In this document: piece by piece, positions 28,911 through 49,427 of the stretch
Numbering within the stretch: the first letter of the stretch is position 1
How the letters are laid out: every line of letters begins with the position of its first letter
From: an uncultured Peptococcaceae bacterium
GTDB taxonomy: Bacteria; Bacillota; Peptococcia; Peptococcales; Peptococcaceae
DNA length: 64,000 nucleotides
Reading direction: 5' to 3'
Assembly: GCA_963558655.1 (NCBI GenBank)
Contig: CAUWHJ010000008.1
Coordinates: forward strand, 3,688 to 67,687
The notes under the pieces: model-generated
What the model saw: the letters and a program-made list of their open reading frames with translations, nothing else
Database searches by the model: none
Told to the model about the DNA's origin: nothing
Made by a program: the position numbers and the translations under genes

Positions 28911-28920
28911 TATAGGTGTG

Positions 28921-29262: not shown

Positions 29263-29286
29263 AGGGAAACTCCTTTCAAAAAGGGA

Positions 29287-31155: not shown

Positions 31156-31229
31156 GGACGGGACACCTCTGTTTATGATGATGTTACTATGATACCACAA
31201 GCGCGGGGTGCTGGCAAAAAATGAAAAAA

Positions 31230-31246
31230 CGTCAAAAAAGGTCAAA
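31230..31246 (+). promoter_or_regulatory. CtsR operator 1
   Basis: cGTCAAA-AAA-GGTCAAA matches the heptad direct repeat consensus (A/G)GTCAAA-NAN-(A/G)GTCAAA. Confidence 0.65.
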
Positions 31247-31315
31247 AAGTTGATGGTATATGATTATCTGTGATTAAAGGTAATTATAGATGATTATTGC
31301 AAAATAAGAACATGG

Positions 31316-31333
31316 TTTGACCAATATTTGACC
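31316..31333 (-). promoter_or_regulatory. CtsR operator 2 (inverted orientation, 4-nt spacer)
   Basis: TTTGACC-aata-TTTGACC, which reads GGTCAAA-tatt-GGTCAAA on the minus strand. It abuts the predicted -35. Confidence 0.55.
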
Positions 31334-31361
31334 TTGCGTTTTCCCAGTGGTGCGCTATAAT
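31334..31361 (+). promoter_or_regulatory. Promoter of the ctsR operon
   Basis: TTGCGT (31334-31339), 16-nt spacer, TATAAT (31356-31361). Confidence 0.55.
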
Positions 31362-31371
31362 AATGACATAA

Positions 31372-31388
31372 GGTCAATAAAGGTCAAG
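31372..31388 (+). promoter_or_regulatory. CtsR operator 3
   Basis: GGTCAAT-AAA-GGTCAAG with canonical 3-nt spacing, located just downstream of the -10. Confidence 0.65.
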
Positions 31389-31403
31389 AGTGAGGTGAGA
31401 AAA

Positions 31404-31934
31404 ATGGGCAGTCTATCCCATGATATTGAACTGTATTTGAAAAAAATGTTGGCTCAAGCAGATGGAGGTGTCCTGATTGTTCAGCGCAGTGTTTTATCCG
31501 AAAAATTTTGCTGTGTGCCCAGTCAGATTAACTATGTTTTGCAAACACGCTTTACACCTGCCAATGGCTATGTGGTAGAAACGCGCCGTGGCGGTGGGGG
31601 GTATGTGCGGATTCAAGCCATTCCGCTCAACGATGCCCATGATTTCCGCCCGTTGATGGAGGCATCTGGAAAAAGTTTAACAGAAAAACAGGCCGAGGGC
31701 ATTTTAACCTATTTGGTGGAAGAAAAAGTGCTGCCGCCAGATGTTGGCACGCTGCTTTCGGCGATTATGAAAGAGCGTGTGTTGCAGCCGCTGCGTTCGC
31801 TCTCGACCAATGAGATGCGTGCGCGCTTGATGGTGCAGCTGTTGGCACACATGAGCATCGGCTCGCAAGATGAAAAACAAACGACCGTTTCTGCCGATGA
31901 AGAGACGGATGACGATAACAATATAAAGGAGTAA
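31404..31934 (+). CDS. ctsR: Class III stress-gene repressor CtsR
   Basis: MGSLSHDIELYLKKML...SQINYVLQTRFT...VETRRGGGGYVRI is typical of CtsR. ATG 31404 lies behind gtgaggtgag. Confidence 0.9.
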   Translation: MGSLSHDIELYLKKMLAQADGGVLIVQRSVLSEKFCCVPSQINYVLQTRFTPANGYVVETRRGGGGYVRIQAIPLNDAHDFRPLMEASGKSLTEKQAEGILTYLVEEKVLPPDVGTLLSAIMKERVLQPLRSLSTNEMRARLMVQLLAHMSIGSQDEKQTTVSADEETDDDNNIKE

Positions 31935-31940
31935 TGACTT

Positions 31941-32510
31941 ATGTTATGTGAAAAATGCAGACAGCGCGAGGCTACCGTTCATAAACAAGTGATTATCAAT
32001 GGCGTTGCACACAGTGAGCACCTTTGTGCGGAATGTGCAGCCAAGGCGCGTGGTGGCAGAGATCCGTTCGCATCGTTTTTCCATAACGCGCTTTTTGGCG
32101 ATGGCTTTTTTGGACAGCCTTTCACAAACTGGTTAGAACCGTTCTTTGGGTTTGGTGGCCAAGCAATACAGCAGACGGAGAACAATGAGGGCGTCGGTGT
32201 ATGTCCATCTTGTGGTATGAGTTGGGATGAATTTCAACGCAATGGTTTCCTTGGTTGCAATGACTGCTATGAACATTTCAAGGAAGCGTTACCACCACTT
32301 ATGCAAGAATTGCACAATGGAACGACTGCACAAACCATATCAAAAACAACCAACGCTGCATCTGCGGCACCAATGAGCGCCAAAGAGCATCTCGAGCAGG
32401 AAATGGCACGGGCGATTGAAGCTGAAAACTTTGAAGAAGCAGCTCGTTTGCGTGATGCCATTAAGGCGTTGGAACAAGCAGGAAACGGCGACAGTTCAGC
32501 AACAGTCTGA
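31941..32510 (+). CDS. mcsA: McsA-like protein (Zn fingers plus UVR motif)
   Basis: CEKC...CAEC and CPSCG...CNDC pairs, with a C-terminal UVR-like IEAENFEEAARLRDAIKALE. Collinear with B. subtilis McsA. Confidence 0.8.
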   Translation: MLCEKCRQREATVHKQVIINGVAHSEHLCAECAAKARGGRDPFASFFHNALFGDGFFGQPFTNWLEPFFGFGGQAIQQTENNEGVGVCPSCGMSWDEFQRNGFLGCNDCYEHFKEALPPLMQELHNGTTAQTISKTTNAASAAPMSAKEHLEQEMARAIEAENFEEAARLRDAIKALEQAGNGDSSATV

Positions 32511-32550
32511 AACAATTACATACAATCATCCTTAAAAGGAGTGAACTTAT

Positions 32551-35016
32551 ATGGCAACTTTTAATTTTACAGAAAACGCAAAAATGGCACTGGCGTATGC
32601 TCAGGAAGAAGCCCTGCATATGCACCACCGCATGATTGGTACGGAGCATTTGTTGTTGGGGTTGATGCGTGCCGGTGGGATTGCCTCAAGCGTGCTTCAA
32701 ACGCTGCACGTTGATCAGGATAAAATTCGCCGTGATATTATCGGCATGGTTGGCGAAGGCAAGGAAGCCGTGAATGCCAATCAGCTGGCGTACACGCCGC
32801 GTGTGAAACGTTGCTTTGAGTTGGCATGGAGTTTGGCGGTGCGTTTACGCATGAACAGTATTGCCACGGAACATTTGTTGGTAGCGATGCTGCAATCGGG
32901 CGATGGCGTGGCTTTTCAGGCACTGGTCGATCAAGGCGTTACCTTGGAACAAATTGTGCGCGAGGTGAACAACCACTATGGTGGCGGTGTTTTTCAGCAG
33001 AAACAGCCTGGGCAAGGCGGGATGCCTGATGAATACGGCGCACAGGAAGGCGGTAACGGCAAAGGCAATGCCCTTGAGGAATATGGCCGCAATCTTAACC
33101 AGATGGCAAAAGAGGGCAAGATTGATCCGGTGATTGGGCGCAGCAAAGAGATTGAGCGTGTTATTCAGATTCTTATTCGCCGTACCAAAAACAATCCTGT
33201 GCTCATCGGTGAACCTGGCGTTGGTAAGACTGCTATTGCCGAAGGTTTGGCACAGCGCATTGTCAGCGGCGAGGTGCCGGAACTTTTGAAAGACAAAGAA
33301 ATCATCAATGTAGACATGGGTGGTCTTGTTGCCGGTAGCAAATACCGTGGTGATTTTGAAGAACGTGTGAAAAACATCATCGAAGAAGTGAAGAGTCGCA
33401 AGAACGTGATTCTCTTTATTGATGAATTGCATACCATCGTTGGTGCCGGTGCTGCGGAAGGCTCGCTTGATGCGGCAAACATTCTCAAGCCAGAATTGGC
33501 GCGTGGTGAATTGCAGGTAATTGGTGCCACCACCCTTGATGAATACCGTAAGTATATTGAAAAAGATGCGGCACTGGAACGTCGTTTCCAGCCTGTCACC
33601 GTAGACGAACCAACGGTGGACGATGTCATCGACATTTTGCGCGGCATCAAAGACAAATACGAAGCATTCCATAATGTAGAAATCGAAGATGCAGCCATCA
33701 TCAGTGCTGTGAAACTCTCTGACCGTTACATTAACGACCGCCAGCTTCCGGATAAAGCCATCGACCTGATAGACGAAGCCTGCTCGCGTGTGCGGCTGCG
33801 CCATAATGTGGCACCGGATACCATTCAGAAAATGGAAGCTGAGCTGGAAGGGTTGATAGGCGAAATGGAAGCCGCCATTCAGGCGCAGGCTTTTGAAAAA
33901 GCGGCAGAAATACGTGATAAAAAGAAAGTCTTGCAGGAACAGCTCACCAGCGCTCGTGACGCCTGGGATAAACAAAACAAGACCAGTCATCAGGTGGTAA
34001 CGGCTGAAGACATTGCCGAAGTGGTGTCGAATTGGTCCGGCGTGCCTGTGACCAAACTCACTGAAGAGGACAGCGAACGTTTGCTGCATCTTGAAACCAT
34101 TCTGCATGAGCGTGTCGTGGGGCAGGATGAAGCGGTTACTGCTGTCAGCAAAGCGGTTCGCCGTGCACACAGCGGTTTGAAAGATGCCAAACGCCCAATT
34201 GGCAGCTTCCTCTTCCTTGGGCCTACCGGTGTTGGTAAAACCGAATTGGCGAAAGCCCTTGCGGAAGCCCTCTTTGACGATGAAAATGCCATGGTGCGTA
34301 TCGACATGAGCGAGTACATGGAAAAATTTGCTGTCAGCCGCCTTGTTGGGGCGCCTCCAGGATATGTTGGCTATGACGAAGGCGGTCAGCTCACCGAAGC
34401 GGTGCGCCGCAAACCATACAGCGTCATCTTGCTTGACGAAATCGAAAAAGCGCATCCAGATGTGTTCAACATTCTTTTGCAAGTGTTGGACGATGGCCGT
34501 CTTACCGACAGTCAGGGACGTGTGGTTGACTTCAAAAACACCGTTATCATCATGACCTCTAACCTTGGCAGCCAAGCCATCATGAACAGCAAAACGCTGG
34601 GCTTTACCAGTGAAAGCGACGACCAGGAAAAAACGGACTATGAAGCCATGAAATCACGTGTGATGGACAACCTCAAGAAAGCTTTCCGTCCGGAATTTCT
34701 CAACCGTATTGATGACATTGTCGTCTTCCATCCACTTACGGCTGACGAACTGAAAGAAATCGTTGGCATCATGATGAAAGACCTTAAAAAGCGTCTTGCC
34801 GATCGTGACCTCAAAATCAGCATGAGCGATGAGGCGTTGGAAGAAATAGCCAAAGTTGGCTACGACCCAGAATTTGGCGCTCGTCCACTGCGCCGCGCTA
34901 TTCAGAATCAGATTGAAGACCCACTCGCCGATGATCTTCTTGCCGGTAAATTCAAAGCCGGCGACACCATTCATGTCAGCGTGAACGAGGACAAACAATT
35001 TGTTTTTGAAAAGTGA
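32551..35016 (+). CDS. clpC: ATP-dependent Clp protease ATPase subunit ClpC
   Basis: Double Clp_N repeat. Two AAA+ modules ([25 protein letters not shown]). UVR-like linker. Confidence 0.95.
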
Positions 35017-35030
35017 TTACAATAAGCGCA

Positions 35031-35068
35031 AAAAAGCATCGATCCTTTGAAAAGGATCGATGCTTTTT
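35031..35068. terminator. Bidirectional intrinsic terminator after clpC
   Basis: aaaaa-gcatcgatcc-tttgaaaa-ggatcgatgc-ttttt: a perfect 10-bp stem flanked by A and T tracts. Confidence 0.9.
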
Positions 35069-35080
35069 GTTGTTTATGTG

Positions 35081-35144
35081 GCGTTTATTCAACCGAAAAG
35101 GCGGCGCACACATGGGCGAGGACGCCGCTTGGCATGGCGTTTTC
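35081..35144. repeat. Left copy of the 64-nt direct repeat (attL-like); the 44-nt perfect core is 35101-35144
   Basis: 35101-35144 is identical to 40091-40134. 35081-35100 matches 40071-40090 at 15/20 nt. Confidence 0.9.
35085..35144 (-). pseudogene. Orphan 3' terminal fragment of the M20 amidohydrolase gene
   Basis: The minus strand reads ENAMPSGVLAHVCAAFSVE-stop, compared with ENAMPSGVLAHVCAALSVE-stop at the end of the intact gene 40075..41223. Confidence 0.75.
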
Positions 35145-35251
35145 CATCATAAAGGGGTGGTAAATATTATATGAACGATTTTTCATGCGATTGTTAGGGC
35201 GGGTGTTAAATAAAATATTGCACAAGTTGCAACATGATAAAGATACTGTAA

Positions 35252-35280
35252 TTCACATAAGATTAATTTATCGATATAAT
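35252..35280 (+). promoter_or_regulatory. Promoter of the islet phosphodiesterase-permease operon
   Basis: TTCACA (35252-35257), 17-nt spacer, TATAAT (35275-35280). Confidence 0.45.
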
Positions 35281-35326
35281 AAGCGTAAAGAGGTGACAAA
35301 TAAACAATTTGAATGGAGGGTCTATT

Positions 35327-37363
35327 ATGTTTGAGAAAAAAACTGACAAAGTCATTGTCTTAGGTGTTGATGGTTTTGATCCTAGATTGGCAAAATATTT
35401 CATGGATCAAGGAAAAATGCCAGCACTTAAAACATATATGGAAAAAGGGGCTGCGAGAGGAGATATGGTCTTGCTCGGCGGAATGCCTACCGTTACTCCG
35501 CCAATGTGGACAACTTTAGCAACCGGTGCTTATCCGGTGACGCATGGTATTACAGCGTTTTTTGGACAACATCCAGACAAACTAGATACATGTACTTATA
35601 ATTTGGATTCACGTTTATGCAGAGCAGAACAATTGTGGAATGTAACGGCAGAAGCGGGAAAGAAAACCTTAGTGTGGCATTGGCCAGGGTCAAGCTGGCC
35701 ACCAAGTAGCGATAGTCCAAATCTTTCAGTTGTAGATGGTACTCAACCAACAGCTATCAATCTTGGAACTGCATGTATAGATCAATCAATCCTTGGGATG
35801 GCAGATGAAAACATTCCTTCTGTTTTGTTTCATTCTCATGATGCTCCAGCGGATGGTGTTAATGGCTGTGTTATTACGGGGCTAGAGGATATGGTAGCGA
35901 AACAGAACAATGAAAATAAAAAAGGTAGAGGGGCTAGTGCTATATTAAAAGGTGAGAAAGAATTTAAAAATTTAATTATGAACGATGATGAAACAGAAAT
36001 TAATACGTTAGCTGAAATCGCAACGGACGTATGTAATAGTCCAATTACAATGGCAAAAGGTTGGTCGAAAGAGGTTGGTGACAGTAAAGAATTTACCATT
36101 CTAACTTCAAATGGGTTTGTACATAGACCATGTTTGATTGTGAAAAATGACAATGGTGTTTACGATCATATTGAAATTTATGCTAATAAAAAAGAAAGTA
36201 TGCCGATTGCGGTAGTGTATCCAGATACATATCATATAGATATTGTCGATAAGGTTTTGCACAATGATAAACAGATTGATGCAAATCGTAATATGGTAAT
36301 TTTTGATCTAGCAGAAGATGGCTCTTATATTCGTTATTGGTTGAGTAGGGCCTATGATATTCATTCAGACCTTGTTTGGCATCCGAAAGACCTTTATAGT
36401 GAAGTGGTTGAAAATGTCGGATATGTGCCACCGATCTGTATGTTAAGTGCAAAGAACCATGATTTTGTGGAAAAAGGTATTTTAAAAAGTTGGGATTATT
36501 ATTGTGATTGGCAGGCAAAAGCATTAACCTATTTCATGGATAATGAGAAATATGATGTTATTTTCTCGCATCTTCATAATATTGATGGCGTTGGGCATCT
36601 GTTCTGGCATTATGCAAAGCATAGTGACGAATGGGGAAACGATGAAGAATTTTATCAGAAAGCTTTTGAATATATGTATCAGCAAACAGATTGTTATTTT
36701 GGAAGATTCTTGAAATATCTTGATGAAGGTTGGACCATTATTTTAACATCGGATCATGGCTTAATTACAGAAGAATACCATCCGCCTATTTTGACTGAAG
36801 GAACGGTTAGTGTCCCTGTTATGGAAGAATTAGGATATACCGTATTGAAGAAAGATGAAAATGGTAACAAGTTAAGGGAAATTGACTGGGATAAAACAAA
36901 AGCTATCGCTATTAGAGGTGGTCATATTTATATTAATCTGAAGGGGAGAAATACAACTGGCATTGTAGCTCCAGAAGATAAATATGAATTGGAAGGTCAA
37001 ATTATTTCTGATTTATATAATTATAGAGATCCAAGAACAAATAAACGTGTTGTAGCTATAGCACTAAGAAATAAAGACGCTGTTCTTCTTGGTCTTGGTG
37101 GGGATCAATGTGGCGATATTATCTTCTTCATGGAAGAAGGGTTTAATATCATTCACATGGATTCGCTTTCAACTCAAAATGGCTACTTCCATACATCTGT
37201 TTCACCATTCTTTATTGCTGCTGGGGCTGGTATTAAGTCTAACTATCGTACCGATAGATATATTCGTCAAGTAGATGTTACTCCAACTATTGCGGCTTTA
37301 CTTGGTGTTCATTTGCCAAAACAGTCAGAAGGTTCTATCGTACATCAGATTTTTGAAGATTAA
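35327..37363 (+). CDS. Alkaline-phosphatase-superfamily enzyme, nucleotide pyrophosphatase/phosphodiesterase (NPP)-like, cytoplasmic
   Basis: Metal ligand VLGVDGFDP. Nucleophile region MPTVTPPMWTTLATGAYPVTHGI. Distal HLHNIDGVGH and LTSDHG. No signal peptide. ATG 35327 lies 6 nt behind ggaggg. Confidence 0.8.
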   Translation: MFEKKTDKVIVLGVDGFDPRLAKYFMDQGKMPALKTYMEKGAARGDMVLLGGMPTVTPPMWTTLATGAYPVTHGITAFFGQHPDKLDTCTYNLDSRLCRAEQLWNVTAEAGKKTLVWHWPGSSWPPSSDSPNLSVVDGTQPTAINLGTACIDQSILGMADENIPSVLFHSHDAPADGVNGCVITGLEDMVAKQNNENKKGRGASAILKGEKEFKNLIMNDDETEINTLAEIATDVCNSPITMAKGWSKEVGDSKEFTILTSNGFVHRPCLIVKNDNGVYDHIEIYANKKESMPIAVVYPDTYHIDIVDKVLHNDKQIDANRNMVIFDLAEDGSYIRYWLSRAYDIHSDLVWHPKDLYSEVVENVGYVPPICMLSAKNHDFVEKGILKSWDYYCDWQAKALTYFMDNEKYDVIFSHLHNIDGVGHLFWHYAKHSDEWGNDEEFYQKAFEYMYQQTDCYFGRFLKYLDEGWTIILTSDHGLITEEYHPPILTEGTVSVPVMEELGYTVLKKDENGNKLREIDWDKTKAIAIRGGHIYINLKGRNTTGIVAPEDKYELEGQIISDLYNYRDPRTNKRVVAIALRNKDAVLLGLGGDQCGDIIFFMEEGFNIIHMDSLSTQNGYFHTSVSPFFIAAGAGIKSNYRTDRYIRQVDVTPTIAALLGVHLPKQSEGSIVHQIFED

Positions 37364-37380
37364 AGTGTTATTCTAATAGT

Positions 37381-37417
37381 ATGAAGAGAGAAACAAGTTA
37401 ATTTCTCTCTTCATTTA
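37381..37417 (+). terminator. Hairpin after the phosphodiesterase gene (weak T tract)
   Basis: 13-bp perfect stem atgaagagagaaa / tttctctcttcat with an 8-nt loop. Confidence 0.55.
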
Positions 37418-37471
37418 TAGATTAGTGTCACATTTAATTTTGCATAAATATAATCAAAGTGAGGTGTAATT

Positions 37472-38923
37472 ATGTCCACGAAAGTAGCAATTAAAAAAGA
37501 TTATACCTTTTACATTCATGTTATTATTACGTTGTTTTTTATGTTTGTTTTTGGTCGTATTGTTCCTCCGGTTGGTCCATTGACTGAGATTGGTATGAAT
37601 TGCCTTGGAATTTTAATCGGAGTTATTTATGCTTGGACGACAACCAGCCTTATTTGGCCTAGTTTTCTTGGCATGGTTGCGATGGTTACTAATGGTGCAT
37701 ATACGATGACAGAATGGCTACCTGTTTTTTTTGCAAATACGACTGTAGTTTTTATGTTACTTATATTTGTTTTTACGCAGGTTATTAATGAATCTGGCTT
37801 GGTTAAATTTTTTGCTGCATGGCTGATGAGTCGGAAAATTATAGAGGGTAGACCTTGGCTATTCACGTCCTTTTTGTTATTAGGTGCATATCTTGGTGGT
37901 ATGTTTGTTAATGGTTTTGCGGTTTCATTAATTTTGTGGATGATTTTATATGACGTTTGCAACAAATTTGGTTTTAAGCCTTATGAAAAATATCCAACAA
38001 TGATGATTTTGGGTATTGTACTTTGTTCATGCATATTGGGAACTTCTGTAATGCCTTATCGTTTGACAGCAATGGTCATGATAGGGACTATTAATTCTGT
38101 TGCACCACAGTGGGCGGTGAATTCTTCTCAATATTTACTCTTTGCTGTGCCGACAACATTAATAATGGTTGTTAGCTATATACTTATTATGAAATTTGTA
38201 TTTCGAATTGATCTCTCTAAAATGAAAACGATTAGTAGTGATTATGTAAATCAAGGGGATCTAGCTCTTACAAAAATACAGAAGATTTCTGCGATTTTTC
38301 TGGTTGTTGCTGTTGTTTCGTTGATTGTTGTCGATTCTATTTCGAGTTTAGATAGCATAAGTAATATTGGCGTTATTTTGGCAGTTTTGGCAGTGATGTT
38401 ATTAATTAAAGTTGATGGAGAACCATTACTTGATTTTGCGAAAGCTGCAAGGGGAATTCAATGGCAGATGATATTTTTATTTGCTTTTATTCTTCCCTTT
38501 TCTAATTACCTTACATCAGATGCGACAGGCATTAAAACATTGTTAATTCAAAATGCTATTCCGTTTTTTTCATCTATGTCGCCATTGGTTTTTGTTTTCT
38601 TGATATCATTTATTGGCATGATCCTTACTAATTTTACAAATAATGCGGTCCTTTCGATTATGTTGATAACTATATCAATACCGATTTGTGAAGGGATGGG
38701 AATTTCACCATTACCACTTATTATGCTTGGCGTATTTACGAATCAATTTGCATTTCTTACGCCAGCAGCATCTGCTCCAGCGGCATTTGTATTTGCAAAT
38801 ACTGCATGGATTAAACCGGCTGATATGTATAAAATTATTCCGGTTACATTGCTTTTATTGTTTATTGTAGCGTGTGTAGTCGCCTTTCCTTATGCTTGTT
38901 TGATCTTTGGGTTCCATATTTAA
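37472..38923 (+). CDS. IT-superfamily permease, paralogue of the ORF at 1..1269
   Basis: 483-aa polytopic protein. Shares LIWPS, GRPW and NFTNNAVLSIML motifs with the first ORF of the window. RBS gtgaggtg upstream. Confidence 0.75.
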   Translation: MSTKVAIKKDYTFYIHVIITLFFMFVFGRIVPPVGPLTEIGMNCLGILIGVIYAWTTTSLIWPSFLGMVAMVTNGAYTMTEWLPVFFANTTVVFMLLIFVFTQVINESGLVKFFAAWLMSRKIIEGRPWLFTSFLLLGAYLGGMFVNGFAVSLILWMILYDVCNKFGFKPYEKYPTMMILGIVLCSCILGTSVMPYRLTAMVMIGTINSVAPQWAVNSSQYLLFAVPTTLIMVVSYILIMKFVFRIDLSKMKTISSDYVNQGDLALTKIQKISAIFLVVAVVSLIVVDSISSLDSISNIGVILAVLAVMLLIKVDGEPLLDFAKAARGIQWQMIFLFAFILPFSNYLTSDATGIKTLLIQNAIPFFSSMSPLVFVFLISFIGMILTNFTNNAVLSIMLITISIPICEGMGISPLPLIMLGVFTNQFAFLTPAASAPAAFVFANTAWIKPADMYKIIPVTLLLLFIVACVVAFPYACLIFGFHI

Positions 38924-38941
38924 AGGAAACAAAAAAGAAGG

Positions 38942-38990
38942 CCCACTTGTATAATGCAATGATTTACAGTGCATTGTAAGTGGGTTTTCT
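38942..38990. terminator. Imperfect long hairpin between the convergent permease and LysR genes
   Basis: cccactt...aatgc / gcatt...aagtggg arms with an internal loop, followed by ttttctttg. Confidence 0.5.
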
Positions 38991-39041
38991 TTGTATGAAG
39001 TTTTTTATGATGTGCGATTTCAGGTTTATCATTAAAGATAC

Positions 39042-39953
39042 TTAATTGAGACGACTGAATTCTTTAATGATTTGGATGAAGCGTTCAATAATTGAAATTG
39101 AATTAGATGTTTTATTATAGATAGCGTATGTTGGAAAAGATTGTAGGTTACAAATAGGAATGGCTTTTACATTATCATTTGTATAGTCAATCATATTGCT
39201 AAAGGTTAGACCTATGGCATTTTGACGGACAATAAGTTGACGAATGAGATTGATATTGTTTGAATATAGGACGATATTTACATTATCGAAATCAGAAAAA
39301 AGAGACTTATATGTTAAATCGTCAGATTGATCGGATGCGGTTAAAGCAAGTGGAAAAGTTATTATTTCCTCTAAGCTGACTGATTTACGTTGAGCAAAAA
39401 TAGATGATTCGTTCACCAAGATATACATACTTTCATAGTAAAGAAAATCATAGCAGTAATCGCTATAATCTTGAATATTATCAAGTTGTTTTGAATTACA
39501 AAAAGAAATTCCTATATCACTGATTCCAGTTAAAACGTCATCTATCACTAGATTGGATGACTTTTCGATGACTGAAAGTTTAATTTTTGGATTTTTTTCT
39601 AAGAAAAATGGAACAATTTCATGAAGATAGTAATTATTCGCAGCAAAAGTTAAACTTACTTTCAAAGATCCTGAAATTTCGGTAGAGAATGTTTGATTAT
39701 ATTGGATGGCAAGTTGGTCAAATTTACTTGTTAATGACAGAATTTGTTTCGAAAGTTCAAAAGCTGTTTGACCATATGATGTGAGTGTAACTCCAGAATG
39801 GTGGCGATTGAATAATGGAAAACCTATTTCTTGTTCAAGATTTTGTAAAGCAACGCTAAGAGCGGGAGAAGAGATAAATAAATTATCTGCTGCTTTACGA
39901 ATTGATCCGGTTTTTGCTATTTCAACAAAATATTTAAGCTGTTCAATACGCAT
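39042..39953 (-). CDS. LysR-family transcriptional regulator
   Basis: N-terminal HTH (IRKAADNLFISSPALSVALQNLEQEIGFPLFNR) plus a substrate-binding domain of typical length. Confidence 0.9.
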   Translation of the reverse strand: MRIEQLKYFVEIAKTGSIRKAADNLFISSPALSVALQNLEQEIGFPLFNRHHSGVTLTSYGQTAFELSKQILSLTSKFDQLAIQYNQTFSTEISGSLKVSLTFAANNYYLHEIVPFFLEKNPKIKLSVIEKSSNLVIDDVLTGISDIGISFCNSKQLDNIQDYSDYCYDFLYYESMYILVNESSIFAQRKSVSLEEIITFPLALTASDQSDDLTYKSLFSDFDNVNIVLYSNNINLIRQLIVRQNAIGLTFSNMIDYTNDNVKAIPICNLQSFPTYAIYNKTSNSISIIERFIQIIKEFSRLN

Positions 39954-40070
39954 AACAATCCCCTTTTCTCGTTATTATATACAGATCATTTTATCAAAAT
40001 GCTAACTGTGCTAACGATATGTCAAGTGAAAAAAGTTCTTGATAAAATACATCGGTGTTTTAAGGGTGAT

Positions 40071-40134
40071 GTGTTTATTCCACAGAAAGAGCGGCGCACA
40101 CATGGGCGAGGACGCCGCTTGGCATGGCGTTTTC
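40071..40134. repeat. Right copy of the 64-nt direct repeat (attR-like), forming the 3' end of the intact amidohydrolase gene
   Basis: See the left copy. The core is 40091-40134. Confidence 0.9.
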
Positions 40135-41223
40135 ATCGAAACGCACGCCGGCGTTGTGGATGTTGGCGTCGTAGCCTGGTACATGGGTACCGAGGGTCAT
40201 CATGGTGATGGGAACGTTTTGGCTGAAGTAGCCAAAGTCTTCGCTCCAGGAGAAAGGTGTTTCGTGAACGCTTGTGCGGCAGTCTGGTGCATAGTGAGCG
40301 AGCACAGCGATGATGTTTTTATTCAGTGAAGGATTGCTGGTGACTGCAGGCACGGAGGTGACCCAACGTGTTTCTGCGGTGCAGCGCAGGGTTTGGGCAA
40401 CGCCTGCAGCAATGGCTTCCAGGCGGCTTTTGAGTTGGCTGCGTAGTGCAGTGTCGTAGGTACGCAGGGTGCCGCGCAGTTGTGCAGTTTCCGGAACAAC
40501 GTTGTAAGTGGTGCCGGAGGTGATGGCACAAACCGAGAGCACGGCGGTGTCAAATGGAGAGATTTCACGGCTCATCAGTCCTTGCAGAGCGTTGTAGATT
40601 TGTACGGCGGCAAAGATGGGGTCGCAGCCGTTGTGCGGAGCGGCGCCATGGGTGCTGGTGCCATGTATGTCCATGAAAAATTCATCGGAAGCGGCATAGA
40701 GTGGGCCATCTTTATAATAGAGCACGCCGCTTTCCATGACGGGCGAAACGTGCAGGGCGAAGGCACCTTGATAGGTTGGCTCGATGAGGCCTTGTTCCAG
40801 AAGAAATTTGCCGCCGGTGGCGCCTTCTTCATCAGGCTGGAAGATGAGGCGTGTGCGATGGGTGAGCTTGTCGGCGTGCTTTTGCAGCAGGCAGGCAGCA
40901 CCCAAGAGCATGGCGGTGTGCAGGTCGTGGCCGCAGTTGTGCGCCCAGGTGGTTTCCGAGGAGAAAGGCAGACCGCTTTCTTCGTGCATAGGTAGTGCGT
41001 CGGTGTCGGCACGCAATATCATGCCTGCGGGGCCATTGCCAATGTCGCAGACGATGGTGCCTTGGCAGGGTTCGGAAAAGGAAACGCGATGTGCGTTTAG
41101 CACATCGCGAATGAGTTGCAGCGTTTCTGGCAGGTCGTAGCCGCCTTCTGCGTGTTGATGCAGGGTGCGGCGCCAGCGGATAAGCTCAGGCAATAAAGCG
41201 TTGGCATCGTTTGTTAGATTCAT
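40075..41223 (-). CDS. M20D-family amidohydrolase (N-acyl-amino-acid / hippurate-hydrolase-like)
   Basis: HNCGHDLH metal-binding motif, with M20 architecture and length. Confidence 0.9.
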   Translation of the reverse strand: MNLTNDANALLPELIRWRRTLHQHAEGGYDLPETLQLIRDVLNAHRVSFSEPCQGTIVCDIGNGPAGMILRADTDALPMHEESGLPFSSETTWAHNCGHDLHTAMLLGAACLLQKHADKLTHRTRLIFQPDEEGATGGKFLLEQGLIEPTYQGAFALHVSPVMESGVLYYKDGPLYAASDEFFMDIHGTSTHGAAPHNGCDPIFAAVQIYNALQGLMSREISPFDTAVLSVCAITSGTTYNVVPETAQLRGTLRTYDTALRSQLKSRLEAIAAGVAQTLRCTAETRWVTSVPAVTSNPSLNKNIIAVLAHYAPDCRTSVHETPFSWSEDFGYFSQNVPITMMTLGTHVPGYDANIHNAGVRFDENAMPSGVLAHVCAALSVE

Positions 41224-41233
41224 GATGACTCTC

Positions 41234-42049
41234 CTAGCTTAAAAGGAAGTAACCAAGGACAATAATCCCGAGTACGATGCGGTAGTAACCGAATGGTTTG
41301 AAGTCGTTCTTGGCTACATAAGCAACAAGGAACTTGATAGCGAGAATCGAGACGACGAAGGCTACAAGCATACCGAAAAGGAGGATGCAGGCTTCGTAGG
41401 CGGTGAAGTTGAACCCGAATTTAACGAGTTTTAAGAGGCTGGCACCAAACATGATTGGAATGCTCATGAAGAAAGAAAATTCCGTAGCTACTGTACGAGA
41501 GGTGCCAACAAGCATACCGCCGATGATGGTGGAACCGGAGCGAGAGGTGCCTGGAATTAAGGAGAGCACCTGGAAGCAGCCGATTTTGAAGGCAGTGAGA
41601 TAGCTCATTTTCTCGAAGCTGTCAACGGTTGGTTTGTAATTGTATTTGGTTTCAATCCAGATGAAAATGATACCGTAGACAATCAACGCAATGGCAACGA
41701 CGACATAATTGTAGAAATGTTCGTCCAGCCAGTCGTTGAGTGGCAAGCCGATGAGAGCGGCAGGCAGGCAGCCGATGATGACCTTGCCCCAGATTTGCCA
41801 GGTGTCGGATTTTTCTTTGGCACTTTTTCGTGGTGAGAAAGGGTTGAGTTTATGAAAATACACAACAACCACGGCTAAAATGGCCCCAAGTTGGATGACA
41901 ACGAGAAACATTTCCCAAAAATCACGGGATACATCCAACCGCAAAAAGTTTTCAACAAGAATCATGTGCCCGGTACTGGAAACTGGCAGCCATTCGGTAA
42001 TCCCTTCGACAATACCAAGTATCAGGACTTTGAGATATTCGATGATCAT
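41234..42049 (-). CDS. uppP: Undecaprenyl-diphosphate phosphatase
   Basis: [10 protein letters not shown] and PGTSRSG motifs. The ATG at 42049 lies 6 nt behind ggagg, which sits inside the longer track ORF. Confidence 0.92.
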
Positions 42050-42194
42050 TTCATTCCTCCATAACATTGTGATGTTACCATTTTAATGGATGTGTACGGT
42101 GGTCGCAAGGGAGGGGCGGGAGAATTTATGAAAAATTTAAGAATAACACGCCTTATCTGAGGGAAATTTGAAAAATATGACTGTGTTTAGTATA

Positions 42195-42223
42195 TTGAAG
42201 GCGGGAAGGATTGCTGATATAAT
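42195..42223 (+). promoter_or_regulatory. Sigma-70-type promoter
   Basis: TTGAAG (42195-42200), 17-nt spacer, TATAAT (42218-42223). Confidence 0.55.
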
Positions 42224-42306
42224 CTGGATATAAAAATGTGGCAAAGAAAATTAAAGATGCCATTAAAAATGTTGGCGGTATCAGCTAGTGAACAATTTTT
42301 GAAAGA

Positions 42307-43083
42307 ATGAAAAGGAACGGGAGATACAGAACGTTGGTACAACAAAATGACATCACTTTTTGGGCGATTGGCGATTTGCATTTGTCGATTGGCTTGGAAA
42401 AAGACAAACAAAAACCGATGGATCAATTTGGTGATGCCTGGGTGCAGCACACAGCGAAGATTGCACGGAGCTGGTGCGAGCGGGTGAAAAAAGATGATGT
42501 GGTGCTGCTTCTGGGCGATCTTATCTGGGGCAATCGTGTAGACGAGGTGCGCTTTGCTCTTGATTGGCTGGGCTGTTTGCCGGGGCGCAAGGTGTTGGTA
42601 CGTGGCAATCATGACAACTGGTGGCAAAGCATTTCTAAGGTGCGTGGCGCTTTGCCGGCAGGTATGTATGCGATTCAAAACGATGCGTTGCTTTTTGGGA
42701 GCGTGGCCATCGCAGGCAGCCGTGGCTGGACGTATGCCGACCCAGAGGGACTTGAGCATCAGGAAAAAATGCTCAGACGTGAATATGCCCGCCTGGAAGC
42801 CTCGCTTGCACAGATGGCGTCCGAAGCCAGCTATCGTATTGCCATGCTGCATTATCCGCCGTTTGATGGCGCAGAGCCAGCGGTGGAAATGGCTGCACTT
42901 TTGGAACGCTACCAGGTTGATGTGTGTGTGTTTGGACATTTGCATGGTCAGGAAGCGGCACAATTCCGAGCAATAGAAAAAAACAATGTGAAATATGTGT
43001 TGGCAAGTGCAGATTATGTTGATTTTTCACCGCTGCCGCTTTATAATTATCAATATATTCATGACCGCATAAGGTATAATTGA
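42307..43083 (+). CDS. Calcineurin-like metallophosphoesterase
   Basis: GDLHLS, GDLIWG, GNHDNWW and GHLHG motifs. Confidence 0.8.
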   Translation: MKRNGRYRTLVQQNDITFWAIGDLHLSIGLEKDKQKPMDQFGDAWVQHTAKIARSWCERVKKDDVVLLLGDLIWGNRVDEVRFALDWLGCLPGRKVLVRGNHDNWWQSISKVRGALPAGMYAIQNDALLFGSVAIAGSRGWTYADPEGLEHQEKMLRREYARLEASLAQMASEASYRIAMLHYPPFDGAEPAVEMAALLERYQVDVCVFGHLHGQEAAQFRAIEKNNVKYVLASADYVDFSPLPLYNYQYIHDRIRYN

Positions 43084-43100
43084 AAAAGGGGGTGAGAAAG

Positions 43101-43484
43101 ATGACAAAACGTATTCTCGCAACAGAAAAAGCGCCTGCCGCATTGGGACCCTATTCTCAAGGCGTGGCTGCCAGCGGCGAAATGATTTTTGTATCCGGTC
43201 AAATTCCTATTGACCCAGCAACCGGCGCACCTGTGGAGGGTGACATTGCGCGCCAAACCACACAGTGCATGGATAACATCATAGCTATTTTAGCGGAAGC
43301 TGGCGCAACGGCGGAGAACATTGTTAAGACGACCATTTATCTCAAGGATATGGACAACTTTGGCGCCGTCAATGAGGCGTATGGCAAGTATTTCAAGGGC
43401 GACGCTCCGGCACGTGGTTGCGTGGAAGTGGCACGTTTGCCAAAGGATATGCAGGTAGAAATTGAAGCCATTGCGGTTTTATAA
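43101..43484 (+). CDS. ridA: RidA/YjgF-family reactive-intermediate deaminase
   Basis: About 127 aa, with APAALGPYSQG ... VEIEAIA, typical of RidA. ATG 43101 lies behind aaaggggg. Confidence 0.9.
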   Translation: MTKRILATEKAPAALGPYSQGVAASGEMIFVSGQIPIDPATGAPVEGDIARQTTQCMDNIIAILAEAGATAENIVKTTIYLKDMDNFGAVNEAYGKYFKGDAPARGCVEVARLPKDMQVEIEAIAVL

Positions 43485-43529
43485 TCGCTGTGCGCTGTTT
43501 GAAGGAGATAAAGAAAAAGGAGGAAGGTT

Positions 43530-44909
43530 ATGCTTGACGCATTGGTTTTAGCCCGTTGGCAGTTTGCGATTACAACGGTGTATCACTTTTTGTTTGTACC
43601 GCTGACGCTCGGCCTGTCCATCATGACAGCAATGATTCAAACGAAATATTATAAAACAGGCGATCCGAAGTACAAAACCATGACGAAGTTCTGGGGAAAA
43701 CTTTTCCTGATTAACTTTGTGATGGGGGTTGTCACGGGGCTTGTGCAGGAATTCCAATTTGGGATGAACTGGTCGGAGTATGCACGTTTCATGGGTGACA
43801 TTTTTGGTGCACCTTTGGCGATTGAGGCGCTTTTGGCGTTCTTTATCGAATCAACGTTTTTGGGCGTGTGGGTCTTTGGTTGGGACCGTCTGCCAAAAGC
43901 GGTGCATTTAGCGAGCATTTGGTTGGTGGCGTTGGCGTCCAACCTGAGTGCGATGTGGATTCTTGTGGCCAACTCATTTATGCAGCATCCACAGGGGTAT
44001 GTGCTCAATAACGGCCGCGTAGAAATGGATAATTTTGCTGACATTGTTGGCAATTCGTATTTCTTCCATCAATTTGCCCATGTGTTCACAGCCGGGCTGA
44101 CAACGGCGGCGTTTTTCATGTTGGGCATCAGCGCTTATCATTTGTTGCGTAAAAAGAACGTGCCAATCATGAAATCATCGTTCAAGTTCGCTGCCATCAT
44201 GGGGCTGATTGCGTCCATCGCCGTAGCTGGTGTAGGGCATATGCAAGGTCAGTATCTGACAAAAGAAGTGCCAATGAAAATGGCTGCCATGGAAGCACTT
44301 TGGGAAACCGAAGAACACGCACCACTGGCGCTTGTTGCCGGTATTGATATGGAAAACCATGAAAACACGTTTGAAATTGCCATTCCTGGCGCATTGAGTT
44401 TTATGGCACATAACAACTTTACTGAAGAAGTGCAGGGGATTAACGATCTTCAGGAACAGTATGAAGAACAGTATGGCGAAGGCAATTATATTCCAGATGT
44501 ACCGCTCATGTTTTGGAGTTTTCGCATCATGGTTGGCGCCGGCAGCCTTTTGGTATTGGGTGCGCTGATTGCTTGCTTCATGGTGAAAACAAAACGTGAG
44601 ATAAAAGGTTCCAAGCTTTTATTGGCCTTTTTACCGTTGATGCTTTTCCCATATCTTGCCAATTCTTTTGGCTGGATTCTCACGGAAGTGGGGCGTCAGC
44701 CATGGATTGTTTATGGCTTGCAAAAGACGGCAGATGCGGTGTCGCAAGTGGTATCCGGCGGCGAAGTGCTGATTACGCTCGTAGGTTTCACCCTCGTTTA
44801 TCTGATATTGGCAATTATTGACGTTGGTTTGCTTGCTCGTGCAGCCAAGAAAGTGGAAGATGGCGACAAGAAGCCTAAAGCGGCAGAGGAGGGCTCGTTA
44901 TGGATTTAA
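43530..44909 (+). CDS. cydA: Cytochrome bd oxidase subunit I
   Basis: Polytopic protein with the GRQPW(I)VYG motif and conserved N-terminal WQFAITTVYHFLFVPLT. Confidence 0.95.
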   Translation: MLDALVLARWQFAITTVYHFLFVPLTLGLSIMTAMIQTKYYKTGDPKYKTMTKFWGKLFLINFVMGVVTGLVQEFQFGMNWSEYARFMGDIFGAPLAIEALLAFFIESTFLGVWVFGWDRLPKAVHLASIWLVALASNLSAMWILVANSFMQHPQGYVLNNGRVEMDNFADIVGNSYFFHQFAHVFTAGLTTAAFFMLGISAYHLLRKKNVPIMKSSFKFAAIMGLIASIAVAGVGHMQGQYLTKEVPMKMAAMEALWETEEHAPLALVAGIDMENHENTFEIAIPGALSFMAHNNFTEEVQGINDLQEQYEEQYGEGNYIPDVPLMFWSFRIMVGAGSLLVLGALIACFMVKTKREIKGSKLLLAFLPLMLFPYLANSFGWILTEVGRQPWIVYGLQKTADAVSQVVSGGEVLITLVGFTLVYLILAIIDVGLLARAAKKVEDGDKKPKAAEEGSLWI

Positions 44910-45907
44910 ATATTCTTTGGTTTATTCTCATTACGGTGCTGTTCATCGGCTTCTTCTTTCTGGAAGGATTCGATTATGGCGTGGGTGCGCTTATTCCAAT
45001 CATCGGTAAGGACGATGATGAACGCCGTGTGGTTTTGAACACCATCGGGCCGTTCTGGGACGGTAATGAGGTGTGGCTGATTACTGCCGGCGGCGCCATG
45101 TTTGCTGCTTTTCCTCATGTGTATGCCACCATGTTCAGTGGTTGGTATCTGGCGCTGTTTTTGATTCTTTTGGCGTTGATTTTGCGCGCTACCGGCATTG
45201 AGTTCCGCAGCCAAAAGCCAAGCCTTTCCTGGCGCAAGGGCTGGGATACGGTGATTGCTGTTTCATCGATTCTGTCTGCTGTGCTTTGGGGCGTGGCGGT
45301 GTCGAATTTGGTGATTGGCGTGCCTATTGATGAAAATATGCAGTATGCTGGCTCTTTCTTCACGCTTCTGCGTCCATTCTGCCTGGTTGGCGGTGTGATG
45401 CTGGCGTTGATTTTCCTCTACCATGGTGCTTGCTATCTCATGCTCAAGGCTGGTGAACAGTCGGTATTAGACCGTGCCCAGGGGATTGCCGAAAAACTTG
45501 GCCCAATCATGATTGTTGTCACGGTTGTTTGGGTGGTGTGGGCATTCTTTGCAAGCACCATGTTTGAGAATGTGCTGGCCATCATCTTCATTGCTCTGGC
45601 AGCGGTGCTGATGATTCTCTCAGTGTTTTGCACCAAAAAGAAAGCATCTGGGAAAGCATTCATCTTTATCGCTTTGGCGATTGCCTTCTGTGTGGCTGGT
45701 GTTTTCGCCGGTATGTTCCCGAACATCATGATTTCGACGATTGACCCAGCGTACAGCCTTGACATCTACAATGCAGCGTCCTCGCCTAAGACCCTGAGCT
45801 TTATGACGAAGGTAGCGCTGACCATGGTGCCGATTGTGCTTTTGTATCAGATTTGGTCTTTCTATGTGTTCCGCGCGCGTGTGACCAAAAAATCGGTGAA
45901 ATATTGA
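44900..45907 (+). CDS. cydB: Cytochrome bd oxidase subunit II
   Basis: Overlaps the cydA stop. 8-TM protein with the N-terminal pattern WF.LI..LF.GFF.LEGFDYGVG. Confidence 0.93.
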   Translation: MDLNILWFILITVLFIGFFFLEGFDYGVGALIPIIGKDDDERRVVLNTIGPFWDGNEVWLITAGGAMFAAFPHVYATMFSGWYLALFLILLALILRATGIEFRSQKPSLSWRKGWDTVIAVSSILSAVLWGVAVSNLVIGVPIDENMQYAGSFFTLLRPFCLVGGVMLALIFLYHGACYLMLKAGEQSVLDRAQGIAEKLGPIMIVVTVVWVVWAFFASTMFENVLAIIFIALAAVLMILSVFCTKKKASGKAFIFIALAIAFCVAGVFAGMFPNIMISTIDPAYSLDIYNAASSPKTLSFMTKVALTMVPIVLLYQIWSFYVFRARVTKKSVKY

Positions 45908-45913
45908 TGAATC

Positions 45914-45944
45914 AAGCGTTTCCTTTTTGGGGAGCGCTTTTTTC
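45914..45944 (+). terminator. Hairpin plus T tract after cydB (possibly a partial terminator)
   Basis: aagcgtttcc / ggagcgctt stem with G-U pairs, followed by tttttt. Confidence 0.5.
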
Positions 45945-45983
45945 TTAGCTTTAGGCAATGTTGAATGATTGAGGAGGTTTTTC

Positions 45984-49425: not shown

Positions 49426-49427
49426 GG

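Follow-up and report, generated by a model that had tools for sequence, protein, structure and literature searches.

The window, which is the whole 64-kb stretch of DNA analysed here, carries a three-gene AT-rich islet between the convergent genes for ClpC and an M20 amidohydrolase, and the islet is bracketed by two copies of the amidohydrolase 3' end (Table 1). Its GC content compares with 48.4% in the rest of the window; the GC profile runs at 0.30-0.40 over 35.1-40.0 kb against 0.48-0.57 in the flanks, and GC3 of the three islet genes is 0.26, 0.28 and 0.22 compared with 0.514±0.054 in 46 core genes (z -4.3 to -5.5). The original prediction of an AT-rich islet (about 35% GC) is thus borne out, with GC3 lying 4-5 SD under the core, and the cargo that it named (an NPP-like phosphodiesterase, a permease and a LysR regulator) is supported for all three genes by Pfam and NCBIfam. 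Intergenic gaps within the islet measure 108-182 nt.

Table 1 Features of the islet, its flanks and the second locus in window coordinates.
Feature	Position	Strand	Remarks
DUF2007-like gene, 83 aa	27687-27938	+	host of the second-locus gene-proximal unit
Second locus, gene-proximal repeat	27858-27981	+	~124-nt unit spanning the end of the DUF2007-like gene (~27 codons and stop) with its terminator
Second locus, His_Phos_1 cassette	28120-28755	+	PF00300; AT-rich, GC3 0.26
Second locus, orphan gene-end-plus-terminator unit	28786-28910	+	adjoins holin-like gene 28921-29262
clpC	32551-35016	+	left core flank, convergent with amidohydrolase; Pfam Clp_N/AAA_2/ClpB_D2-small
Bidirectional terminator hairpin	35031-35068	.	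17-pair stem, then T run
Left repeat copy	35083-35144	-	orphaned native amidohydrolase 3' end, attL-like; last 19 codons, stop and 2 nt
Left 44-nt core	35101-35144	.	presumed crossover region
Islet body	35145-40072	.	4,928 nt, 34.3% GC; absent from L090, L091, L174, L082
NPP / alkaline-phosphatase-superfamily enzyme, 678 aa	35327-37363	+	PF01663 at 2.5e-31 (Pfam/NCBIfam)
CitMHS/DASS-type anion permease	37472-38923	+	PF03600, TIGR00785
LysR-family regulator	39042-39953	-	PF00126 and PF03466; convergent with permease, co-directional with amidohydrolase
Imported spacer	40040-40072	-	directly after replacement stop codon
Tail joined to islet on imported side			TCT GTG GAA TAA ACACATCAC
Right repeat copy	40073-40134	-	imported replacement 3' end, attR-like; 44-nt core 40091-40134
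M20 amidohydrolase, intact target, 382 aa	40075-41223	-	PF01546/PF07687, TIGR01891

At the heart of the duplication is a 44-mer that occurs twice in the 64-kb window with zero mismatches, with no third copy there at up to three mismatches and a chance expectation of 0 matches in 100 shuffles. A repeat search extends the direct repeat to 62 nt, of which 58 are identical between the copies (94%), and 15 of the 20 nt adjoining the 44-mer match. Read on the minus strand, the intact amidohydrolase terminates in the right copy (...CAALSVE*); the left copy gives ...CAAFSVE* and a stop codon at 35085-35087, which lies 16 nt from the terminator hairpin. The four differences between the copies, three synonymous and one Leu/Phe, all fall within the last 18 nt, a clustering that departs from random placement (P=0.0055), and the alleles involved, GCC TTT and GCT CTT, are both natural. 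The original prediction had given the same coordinates and 15/20 extension, had read both copies as the C-terminus and stop of the amidohydrolase (AALSVE right, AAFSVE left) and had confined their mostly synonymous differences to the last six codons, all of which we reproduce. At the core's inner side, islet DNA adjoins the left copy and the gene body adjoins the right copy. The repeats fold no better than shuffled sequences (z +0.1 to -1.5), and the 44-mer finds no match in viral and JGI metagenome collections; a dispersed repeat, which the prediction had named as a possible objection, is not what it represents.

The predicted empty site, with the clpC terminator followed directly by one amidohydrolase 3' end, is present in three conspecific assemblies (L090, L091 and L174) and in the congener L082, and these relatives without the segment hold one gene-end copy only. 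Their layout runs from the amidohydrolase stop through 59-68 nt, including the terminator, into clpC; the hairpin occupies the same position in all of them, where it is common to clpC and the amidohydrolase. The clpC gene is collinear with that of all four, and the amidohydrolase is 99% identical to P0001 and 87% identical to P0002. Positions 12533-12594 of L090 are single copy there and occur twice in the window, meaning that exactly 62 nt were duplicated. Among the other conspecific assemblies (n=5), three are empty and another, L081, carries in the same slot a different LysR insert, seen only in part and joined 22 nt downstream of the stop, outside the 44-mer. Slot content thus differs among conspecifics (empty, NPP islet, L081 insert), as in the hotspots of Oliveira et al., and because L081 holds a different islet, the clpC-amidohydrolase slot is a strain-variable hotspot. 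An islet body identical to the window's is found in Logan contig L083 from another sample, a contig whose ends any repeat would produce in a k=31 assembly graph, and the identical NPP protein is encoded on four contigs of 50-200 kb in NCBI and ENA assemblies.

The orphan left copy is the native gene end, because its AAFSVE tail is the natural allele of the intact gene in L174 and runs on collinearly into the native spacer, matching the tail plus spacer of L090 at 56/60 positions. The gene-completing right copy is imported, because it bears two window-private synonymous changes (40081 and 40084, both within 10 nt of the junction) and runs into a spacer unrelated to the native one (shuffle test P=0.43); the similarity of that spacer to the L082 spacer and terminator arm is marginal (shuffle test P=0.04). 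A displaced native orphan and a supplied replacement end, as originally proposed, are therefore both recovered, the left tail matching conspecifics and the right tail being private. The imported 44 nt are exactly those of the window's own gene, and the congener L082 has 7 mismatches there; by its sequence, the imported gene end is species-like. Homologous recombination is active at the locus. Divergence from L090 drops from 2.95% to 0.91% as one crosses the islet; there are 18 window-private SNPs in 1815 nt to its left compared with 5 in 2387 nt to its right, and clpC of L174 contains a private tract.

The signature recurs on unrelated genes. A second, smaller insertion had been proposed to follow the same logic; both of its repeats (near 27.9 and 28.9 kb) are real, but the terminator is duplicated there besides the gene end. 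In L082, this second locus shows tandem accretion, with a third copy of the unit and one more cassette. An independent relative, L107, carries the same signature on an ABC transporter gene with a 37-nt repeat, so that three unrelated gene ends are now represented (the M20 amidohydrolase, the L107 ABC transporter and, twice, the DUF2007-like gene). The repeats are locus-specific and 37-124 nt long, no motif is common to those of different loci, and all three or four insertion events lie at or beside intrinsic terminators. Of about 10 NPP islands with an AT shift, only 2 still have a boundary repeat.

Domain searches find no integrase, transposase or relaxase in the islet, in keeping with the original prediction, and no PHROG integration families; none of the three is found in the 64-kb window or in the related islands L084/85, L086-89, L093 and L107, and five related island contexts have no recombinase. 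A recombinase-bearing element targeting the amidohydrolase 3' end was not found in the window or the related islands. No pseudogene or decay remnants are visible in the islet, it matches no plasmid or phage record, and no Rfam family reaches its gathering threshold anywhere in the window. The islet is horizontally acquired and non-autonomous, with the structure of an integrative islet that entered by one reciprocal crossover at homologous gene ends. Several classes of element were rejected: an autonomous genomic island, ICE, IME or prophage, given the lack of its own integrase and of plasmid or phage matches; a transposon or IS-bounded element, given no transposase and no terminal inverted repeats among those reported; a transposon-type target-site duplication (2-14 bp, identical), given a 62-nt repeat whose copies carry different alleles; an integron cassette, given repeats that fold like shuffles, no integrase and no Rfam match; and a group II intron or RNA-based terminator insertion, given no Rfam family and no RT domain in the window.

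Taken as observed, the insertion has a definite polarity and exact boundaries, its native and imported copies are told apart, and it encodes no recombinase in cis. With rather less than even confidence, we favour a Campbell-type crossover through host homologous recombination, and not a dedicated integrase, as its origin; the original prediction had left room for both a site-specific and a Campbell-type event. The DNA that came in, in the simplest case the islet as a circle, would have carried a short copy of the amidohydrolase gene end and undergone one reciprocal crossover with the last ~60 nt of the gene, inside the 44-nt identity; the imported end would then finish the gene and leave the native end as an orphan next to the clpC terminator. 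The reaction would be Campbell-type insertion-duplication catalysed by the host. The insert is indeed flanked by a duplicated homology segment, and each copy is a donor/recipient hybrid, reciprocal to the other, with the join in the identical 44-nt core. Spread among strains would then have followed by homologous recombination of the usual kind between the core genes on either side, and recombination between the repeats would remove the islet precisely. Integrase-free hotspots that diversify via flanking homologous recombination are documented (PMC5635113).

One difficulty for host recombination is the shortness of the homology. Stretches of 37-62 nt are at or below the length for efficient RecA-type single crossover, so that recurrence of the signature speaks for catalysis by an enzyme. 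Tyrosine and serine recombinases, moreover, classically leave direct repeats at the 3' end of a target gene; host recombination offers no account of how a replicon-less circle with a gene end first arises and reaches a new cell, no circular form or excision product was observed, and the scarcity of boundary repeats among the NPP islands also weighs against host recombination. Integrase-less derivatives with such repeats are known, namely CIMEs (PMC5704250) and ψSCC elements (PMC4723332). A non-autonomous site-specific element of this CIME or ccr-less ψSCC-like kind is only slightly less likely than host recombination: the 62-nt repeats would be attL and attR, the recombinase would reside elsewhere (on an ICE, IME or prophage of the same or the donor cell) or have been deleted, and excision, transfer and re-integration would need it in trans or after accretion. 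The architecture fits, with 3'-end insertion, a 44-nt core with diverged arms and a protein-preserving replacement end, and repeats of 37 nt (L107) and 44-62 nt (window), short for RecA, are typical of att identity segments. The slot is a hotspot, as L081 has another islet in it, and the accretion at the second locus of L082 is the pattern of CIME/IME tandems (PMC5704250) and of SCC arrays partitioned by direct repeats (PMC4723332). Against such an element stand the unsuccessful searches for a recombinase-bearing relative with this target, the compactness of the remnant-free islet, the absence of the 44-mer from any other context in the viral and JGI collections and the L081 insert, which joins past the stop and not in the 44-mer; three unrelated gene ends with no common motif would also demand three specificities.

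Duplication of the target in situ, in which illegitimate or microhomology repair of a break or a stalled fork close to the terminator takes in foreign DNA, is distinctly improbable. It would need no recombinase, and the placement of every event at or beside an intrinsic terminator, a possible microhomology at the left junction (...TTTATGATG followed by G across the junction, against the gene's ...TTTCGATG) and the closeness of the two private changes to the junction all agree with it. The 62 native nt would be copied on both sides and the differences arise later, via junction-proximal mutagenesis and allele exchange, but the GCC TTT and GCT CTT alleles cannot come from one template without extra events, the mismatches are clustered, and both private changes are synonymous; we know of no case in bacteria in which illegitimate or microhomology repair yields target duplications of 37-124 nt. 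An islet ancestral in the lineage, with the empty sites produced by deletion between the repeats, is very improbable: such recombination would restore a site in any one strain that looks never occupied, but the low GC3, the empty sites of L082 and of three of the five other conspecific assemblies (a fourth holding a different insert) and the related cassettes at other loci in other genomes speak for acquisition. That the junctions are an assembly artefact, in which a free 4,990-nt circle or foreign DNA with the 44-mer was threaded into the chromosome, is hardly credible. A metagenome-assembled genome is the probable source of the window, and the L083 unitig (k=31 graph) fits a free circle plus an empty site equally; the artefact would, however, require two chimeric joins at reciprocal positions, the orphan and replacement tails are each unique and contiguous with the repeat, and the NPP protein recurs unchanged on the four long contigs.

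The structure is of a known kind, and its recurrent recombinase-free pattern is unusual. CIME19258 and CIME302, related to ICESt1/ICESt3, occupy the 3' end of fda in Streptococcus thermophilus (PMC5704250, refs 79, 80). Like CIMEs, the islet lies between direct repeats of attL/attR type, each containing the end of a protein gene, with the right copy of its 62-nt repeat completing the amidohydrolase and the left being an orphan; it holds cargo only (NPP, permease and LysR) and no integration or transfer genes. CIMEs also stand in tandem with other elements with site copies between, as does the second locus in L082. By contrast, CIMEs are defined as products of ICE or IME decay, and a cognate integrase acts on their att sites; here, no decay remnants and no related intact element were found in a small sample, no cognate element or integrase is known, and the signature lies at three unrelated gene ends. 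In staphylococci, ψSCC cassettes similarly insert at the 3' end of a housekeeping gene left functional (rlmH/orfX; PMC4723332), are bounded and partitioned by direct repeats, lack their own recombinase and fill a strain-variable hotspot slot. Target and host differ, however: SCC repeats are ~15 nt and recognised by CcrAB/CcrC, unlike the 37-124-nt locus-specific repeats here, where the target is an M20 amidohydrolase and the window has no Ccr-like serine recombinase or resolvase domain. Campbell insertion-duplication, in which a circular molecule with a chromosomal fragment inserts by a single crossover (as in laboratory insertion-duplication mutagenesis and episome integration), shares the topology, with homology duplicated on both sides and copies that are reciprocal donor/recipient hybrids, but usually involves plasmid- or IS-borne homologies of hundreds of bp. 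To our knowledge, a natural replicon-less 5-kb cassette using a gene end of 44-62 nt has not been described as a recurrent route. The hotspots of Oliveira et al. likewise are variable slots between core genes with no mobility genes and with recombination in the flanks, but that model predicts clean replacement with no flank duplication (PMC5635113); it accounts for spread and turnover at this slot but not for how the 62-nt repeat arose.

In bacteria, about half of the hotspots for gene transfer have no recognisable mobile element, and how genes first enter them is an open question (PMC5635113). The locus offers a clean molecular scar of one entry into an integrase-free hotspot, with both junctions intact, conspecific empty sites, distinguishable native and imported tails and independent events on other genes. 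If a trans-acting recombinase was responsible, the range of CIME/ψSCC-type non-autonomous cassettes would widen to include uncultured gut Peptococcaceae and new target genes; if the host's recombination is enough, the islet would mark an entry route missed by island finders keyed to integrases. It is rather unlikely, though conceivable, that cassettes of this AT-rich kind are a class of mobile units that lack a recombinase and rely on host recombination only, with a gene-3'-end copy as their sole integration signal. Such units would enter by single crossover, be rendered neutral by the replacement end, leave via the repeats and build tandem arrays through reuse of the orphan end; guided by homology, they would parallel the site-specific integrative elements and account for some of the many integrase-free hotspots.

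As for the cargo, the islet encodes a LysR-regulated module of an anion permease and a cytoplasmic NPP-family hydrolase, which probably takes up and cleaves an anionic phospho- or phosphono-ester. The N-terminal part of the NPP enzyme shows a weak match to phosphonoacetate hydrolase.

The 44-nt sequence GCGGCGCACACATGGGCGAGGACGCCGCTTGGCATGGCGTTTTC occurs twice in the window, at 35101-35144 and 40091-40134; no third copy with up to three mismatches was found in the window, and 100 dinucleotide-preserving shuffles yielded none. Extended to the left, the two copies form a 62-nt direct repeat (35083-35144 and 40073-40134) with 58 of 62 positions identical, all four mismatches falling within the last 18 positions (P=0.0055). 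Both copies represent the 3' end of an M20 amidohydrolase gene and enclose an AT-rich segment (hereinafter the islet). The repeats fold no better than shuffled sequences, and a hairpin-type site was rejected on this ground. What the original prediction had stated about the repeat, the gene ends, and the composition and genes of the islet was confirmed throughout.

Features of the islet, its borders and the second insertion locus (window coordinates)
Feature	Position	Strand	Remarks
DUF2007-like gene, 83 aa (second locus)	27687-27938		followed by its terminator, then by an AT-rich His_Phos_1 gene
Orphan unit (second locus)	28786-28910		last ~27 codons, stop and terminator; ~124 nt, 83-89% identity
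clpC	32551-35016		followed by a 17-pair hairpin at 35031-35068
Orphan left copy of the amidohydrolase end	35083-35144	-	reads ...CAAFSVE-stop; 16 nt from the hairpin 3' of clpC
Islet	35145-40072		4,928 nt
NPP / alkaline-phosphatase-superfamily enzyme	35327-37363	+	
CitMHS/DASS permease	37472-38923	+	
LysR regulator	39042-39953	-	
M20 amidohydrolase, intact, 382 aa	40075-41223	-	PF01546/PF07687, TIGR01891; right repeat copy forms the gene end

The islet has a GC content of 34.3%, compared with 48.4% for the rest of the window. Its genes have GC3 values of 0.22-0.28 against 0.514±0.054 for the core genes (n=46; z -4.3 to -5.5), and the codon-usage distance of the three genes lies 1.7-2.3 sd above the core mean; composition and codon usage, proposed earlier as a check, both differ from the core. 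The genes are separated by gaps of 108-182 nt, and every other ORF overlaps one of them. The putative functions of the cargo are drawn from weak family matches, and the NPP-family enzyme matches phosphonoacetate hydrolase weakly and in its N-terminal part only. The target amidohydrolase has the highest GC3 among the core genes of the window (0.63; z +2.1); it may itself be an older acquisition.

Exact searches for the amidohydrolase and ClpC proteins of the window gave no record, and relatives were reached through a homologous-protein search instead; every comparator is a metagenome-derived contig. In three assemblies of the same species, namely L090 (GCA_036303485.1; nucleotide sequence 97-99% identical with that of the window), L091 and L174, the amidohydrolase and clpC genes converge with 68 nt from stop to stop and without the islet. 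L082, from a congener (84-86% nucleotide identity), has the same convergent arrangement with 59 nt between stops, and the predicted empty site, a single gene end followed by clpC, is therefore present in all four. In blastn alignments, window 26944-35144 corresponds to L090 4388-12594 and window 40073-50003 to L090 12533-22466, with exactly 62 nt (L090 12533-12594) aligning twice. L001, a 66% relative among the species representatives, was unusable as an empty site since it lacks clpC synteny, and L092 (ClpC 89%) was set aside as a comparator locus, being neither syntenic nor furnished with repeats. In the conspecific contig L081 (99.5% identical; Logan SRR33398660), the slot between clpC and the amidohydrolase holds an AT-rich insert of its own, with a LysR gene other than that of the islet (L081 2447-3452); the insert starts 22 nt past the amidohydrolase stop, outside the 44-mer, and has one end only on the contig. 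The slot is a hotspot.

Comparison of the gene ends distinguishes the native from the imported tail.

Last seven codons of the amidohydrolase gene and adjoining spacer, in gene-sense orientation
Source	Sequence
L090, L091 (empty)	GCC GCC CTT TCG GTT GAA TAA ACGCCCGATAAACAACAAAAAGCA...
L174 (empty)	GCC GCC TTT TCG GTT GAA TAA ACGCCCGAT...
Window left (orphan)	GCC GCC TTT TCG GTT GAA TAA ACGCCACATAAACAACAAAAAGCA...
Window right (intact gene)	GCC GCT CTT TCT GTG GAA TAA ACACATCACCCTTAAAACACCGATG...

The AAFSVE tail of the orphan is a natural allele of the species, as in L174, and a reading of its Leu-to-Phe change as decay was rejected accordingly; the orphan continues into the native spacer, the terminator and clpC (56/60 identical to L090). 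The gene-proximal copy has a different allele, GCT CTT, shared with L081, and two synonymous changes seen only in the window, at 40081 and 40084. Its spacer shows no similarity to the native spacer (P=0.43) and marginal similarity to the L082 spacer (P=0.04); the proposal that it is an L082-type terminator arm was lowered to suggestive, as the shuffle test gave only this P value. Inward of the core, the left copy gives way to islet DNA as ...CCCCTTTATGATG|GAAAAC... and the gene reads ...GCGTTTCGATG|AAAAC.... Since alleles and spacers differ and the mismatches are clustered, the two copies are reciprocal hybrids in which two distinct molecules meet inside the 44-nt identity. The native end was displaced and the replacement end arrived with the islet, as the original prediction had proposed and as the L174 allele, the native spacer and the private changes demonstrate. 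An imported tract reaching ~340 nt into the gene was also considered and abandoned, only two window-private SNPs being left with three comparators, which is not significant.

Pfam scans of every major ORF, together with the precomputed annotations of the collinear L082 and L090, detected no integrase, transposase, resolvase, relaxase or reverse transcriptase across the 64-kb window, where the genes are of housekeeping and transport type only (including RF-1, prmC, the mraZ-ftsZ cluster, uvrC, ctsR-mcsA-clpC, bacA, cydABCD and ilv). The unknown ORFs of the window gave no match to PHROG integration families; the claim of an islet devoid of recombinase holds and extends to the whole window. The window also contains no tRNA or tmRNA gene and no Rfam family, group II introns and riboswitches included. 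Islet DNA matched nothing in plasmid and phage collections, and the 44-mer, sought as an attP beside an integrase, had no match at all in viral and JGI metagenome contigs. The analysis shows that the islet is an insertion with exactly defined ends that varies between strains, that the end of its target gene was duplicated as reciprocal hybrids while the gene stayed intact, and that no recombinase is encoded in cis.

The NPP-permease-LysR module occurs in other genomes (74-78% protein identity) at other chromosomal sites, namely 3' of a GMP-synthase-like gene (L084/85), of Iso_dh (L086-89) and of a 2-hydroxyacid dehydrogenase gene (L093); it is AT-shifted at each of these sites, and a recombinase was never found beside it there. 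A metagenome scan with the family alignment added 80 NPP loci (49-64% identity), the majority of which look native and a subset of which are AT-shifted by 10-20 points; a boundary repeat is kept in only 2 of ~10 AT-shifted islands. Screening 57 further NPP loci for bracketing repeats returned one true case, the other matches being paralogue or regulatory repeats (L110, L120, L099, L102 and L121), an assembly duplication (L123) and a contig-end overlap (L132). The true case, L107 (OLOM01000362.1, 3583-10739), is a 7.1-kb AT-rich island bracketed by a 37-nt repeat (36/37), which is made up of the final 10 codons of a GC-rich ABC-transporter gene with its stop and 5 nt. It encodes NPP, DASS permease, 170-aa ORF, ABC ATPase, 308-aa ORF and LysR, with no recombinase in the island; the orphan copy adjoins a GC-rich terminator and the gene-proximal copy an AT-rich one. 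L107 is an independent example of the same signature on a different gene.

A second insertion of like logic, noted earlier at 27849-28910 of the window, was borne out as an orphan gene end with an AT-rich cassette. This arrangement is old, since L090 and L082 share it with the window. In L082 (17317-20072) the unit occurs in three copies, and one further cassette (HTH, 116 aa, DUF3267) has been inserted at the orphan unit; the locus there is a tandem accretion, with cassettes in an array.

The islet would be explained by a single reciprocal crossover between the gene end on the chromosome and its counterpart on an incoming circle, for which the predicted circle junction is ...CACAGAAAGA + 44-mer + CATCATAAAGGGGTGG... 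and the predicted empty junction ...CAACCGAAAAG + 44-mer + ATCGAAACGCACGCC.... Our tentative choice of catalyst is host homologous recombination of Campbell type. It is favoured because recombinases and their remnants are completely lacking in all five island contexts and at all three target genes, because the repeats are locus-specific, motif-free and variable in length, because the imported end is species-like in sequence, and because the locus bears clear signs of homologous exchange. Divergence from L090 is 2.95% on the left side of the islet and drops to 0.91% on the right side, the window has 18 private SNPs in 1815 nt to the left against 5 in 2387 nt to the right, and L174 has a private tract in clpC. 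A site-specific recombinase acting in trans, as for a cis-mobilizable element (CIME) or a ccr-less SCC cassette (ψSCC), would also fit as the catalyst and is only slightly less likely; a strong prior for this architecture, the accretion pattern and the repeat length of 37-62 nt, short relative to efficient RecA use, speak for it.

Duplication of the gene end in situ during break repair would also leave two copies, and is unlikely given that the copies carry different alleles. That the islet is ancestral and was later deleted from the empty sites is highly improbable. An assembly artefact is scarcely credible: the identical NPP protein is present on four 50-200 kb contigs. The islet with its repeats also occurs outside the window, in Logan contig L083, whose sequence is that of window 35115-40120 without a single mismatch. 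L083 is nearly islet-sized and was considered as a circle, a reading dropped because its ends lie 30 nt inside each 44-mer, where a break of the k=31 graph yields such contig ends. Whichever event made the repeat, the islet would afterwards be expected to pass from strain to strain through double homologous recombination in its flanks and to be lost precisely by recombination between the repeats (PMC5635113).

In its working the islet resembles a CIME or a ccr-less SCC cassette; it is not assigned to either family, there being no known cognate recombinase or parent element, a different target gene and no decay remnants. It also fits Campbell-type insertion-duplication, a textbook topology; as a natural route that replicon-less cassettes take repeatedly, it is to our knowledge undescribed. 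The structure in itself would not surprise a specialist; its value lies in the materials it provides for asking how genes get into integrase-free hotspots, namely a clean scar, conspecific empty sites, an independent second example and an accreted array.

Further variation was observed around the slot and among the screened loci. In L174, a dense tract of private SNPs at the equivalent of window 34641-35001 (clpC 3' end) indicates homologous recombination directly beside the slot. The mcsA-like gene of the window differs from L090 at ~60 of 113 nt (32095-32207) and is ~98% identical elsewhere, which suggests a recombination patch or a variable linker. The lineage has ctsR-mcsA-clpC without mcsB (window 31347-35016); in L092 (7813-12481), the next lineage out, with ClpC 89% identical, mcsB is present and another gene lies 3' of clpC. 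L090 has two Cu_amine_oxidN1-domain paralogues (2046-4770) and the window one (~26000-26944), and the window lacks an equivalent of ~1.1 kb of L090 (3243-4387). L132 (Ga0209643_1002635) has identical 47-nt ends (1-47 and 10971-11017) and may be a circular molecule of ~10,970 nt; it encodes MttB-family, BCCT-transporter, NPP-homologue, thioredoxin-reductase-like and LysR proteins, with no recognised mobility or replication genes. In L110, three ~80% identical copies of a ~140-nt non-coding element (6012-6153, 8388-8499 and 10210-10352), possibly a regulatory site, possibly a small repeat element, lie 5' of, between and 3' of the NPP gene and its permease. A third AT-rich patch, at window 1-3690 (GC3 0.23-0.30), is cut by the window edge. 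It encodes a CitMHS permease, a 146-aa ORF, an ABC ATPase and a 267-aa ORF, the gene series of mid-L107, and stops at a GC-rich terminator (3661-3690) just 5' of the RF-1 gene; on account of this gene series and this end, the patch probably represents a further member of the islet family.
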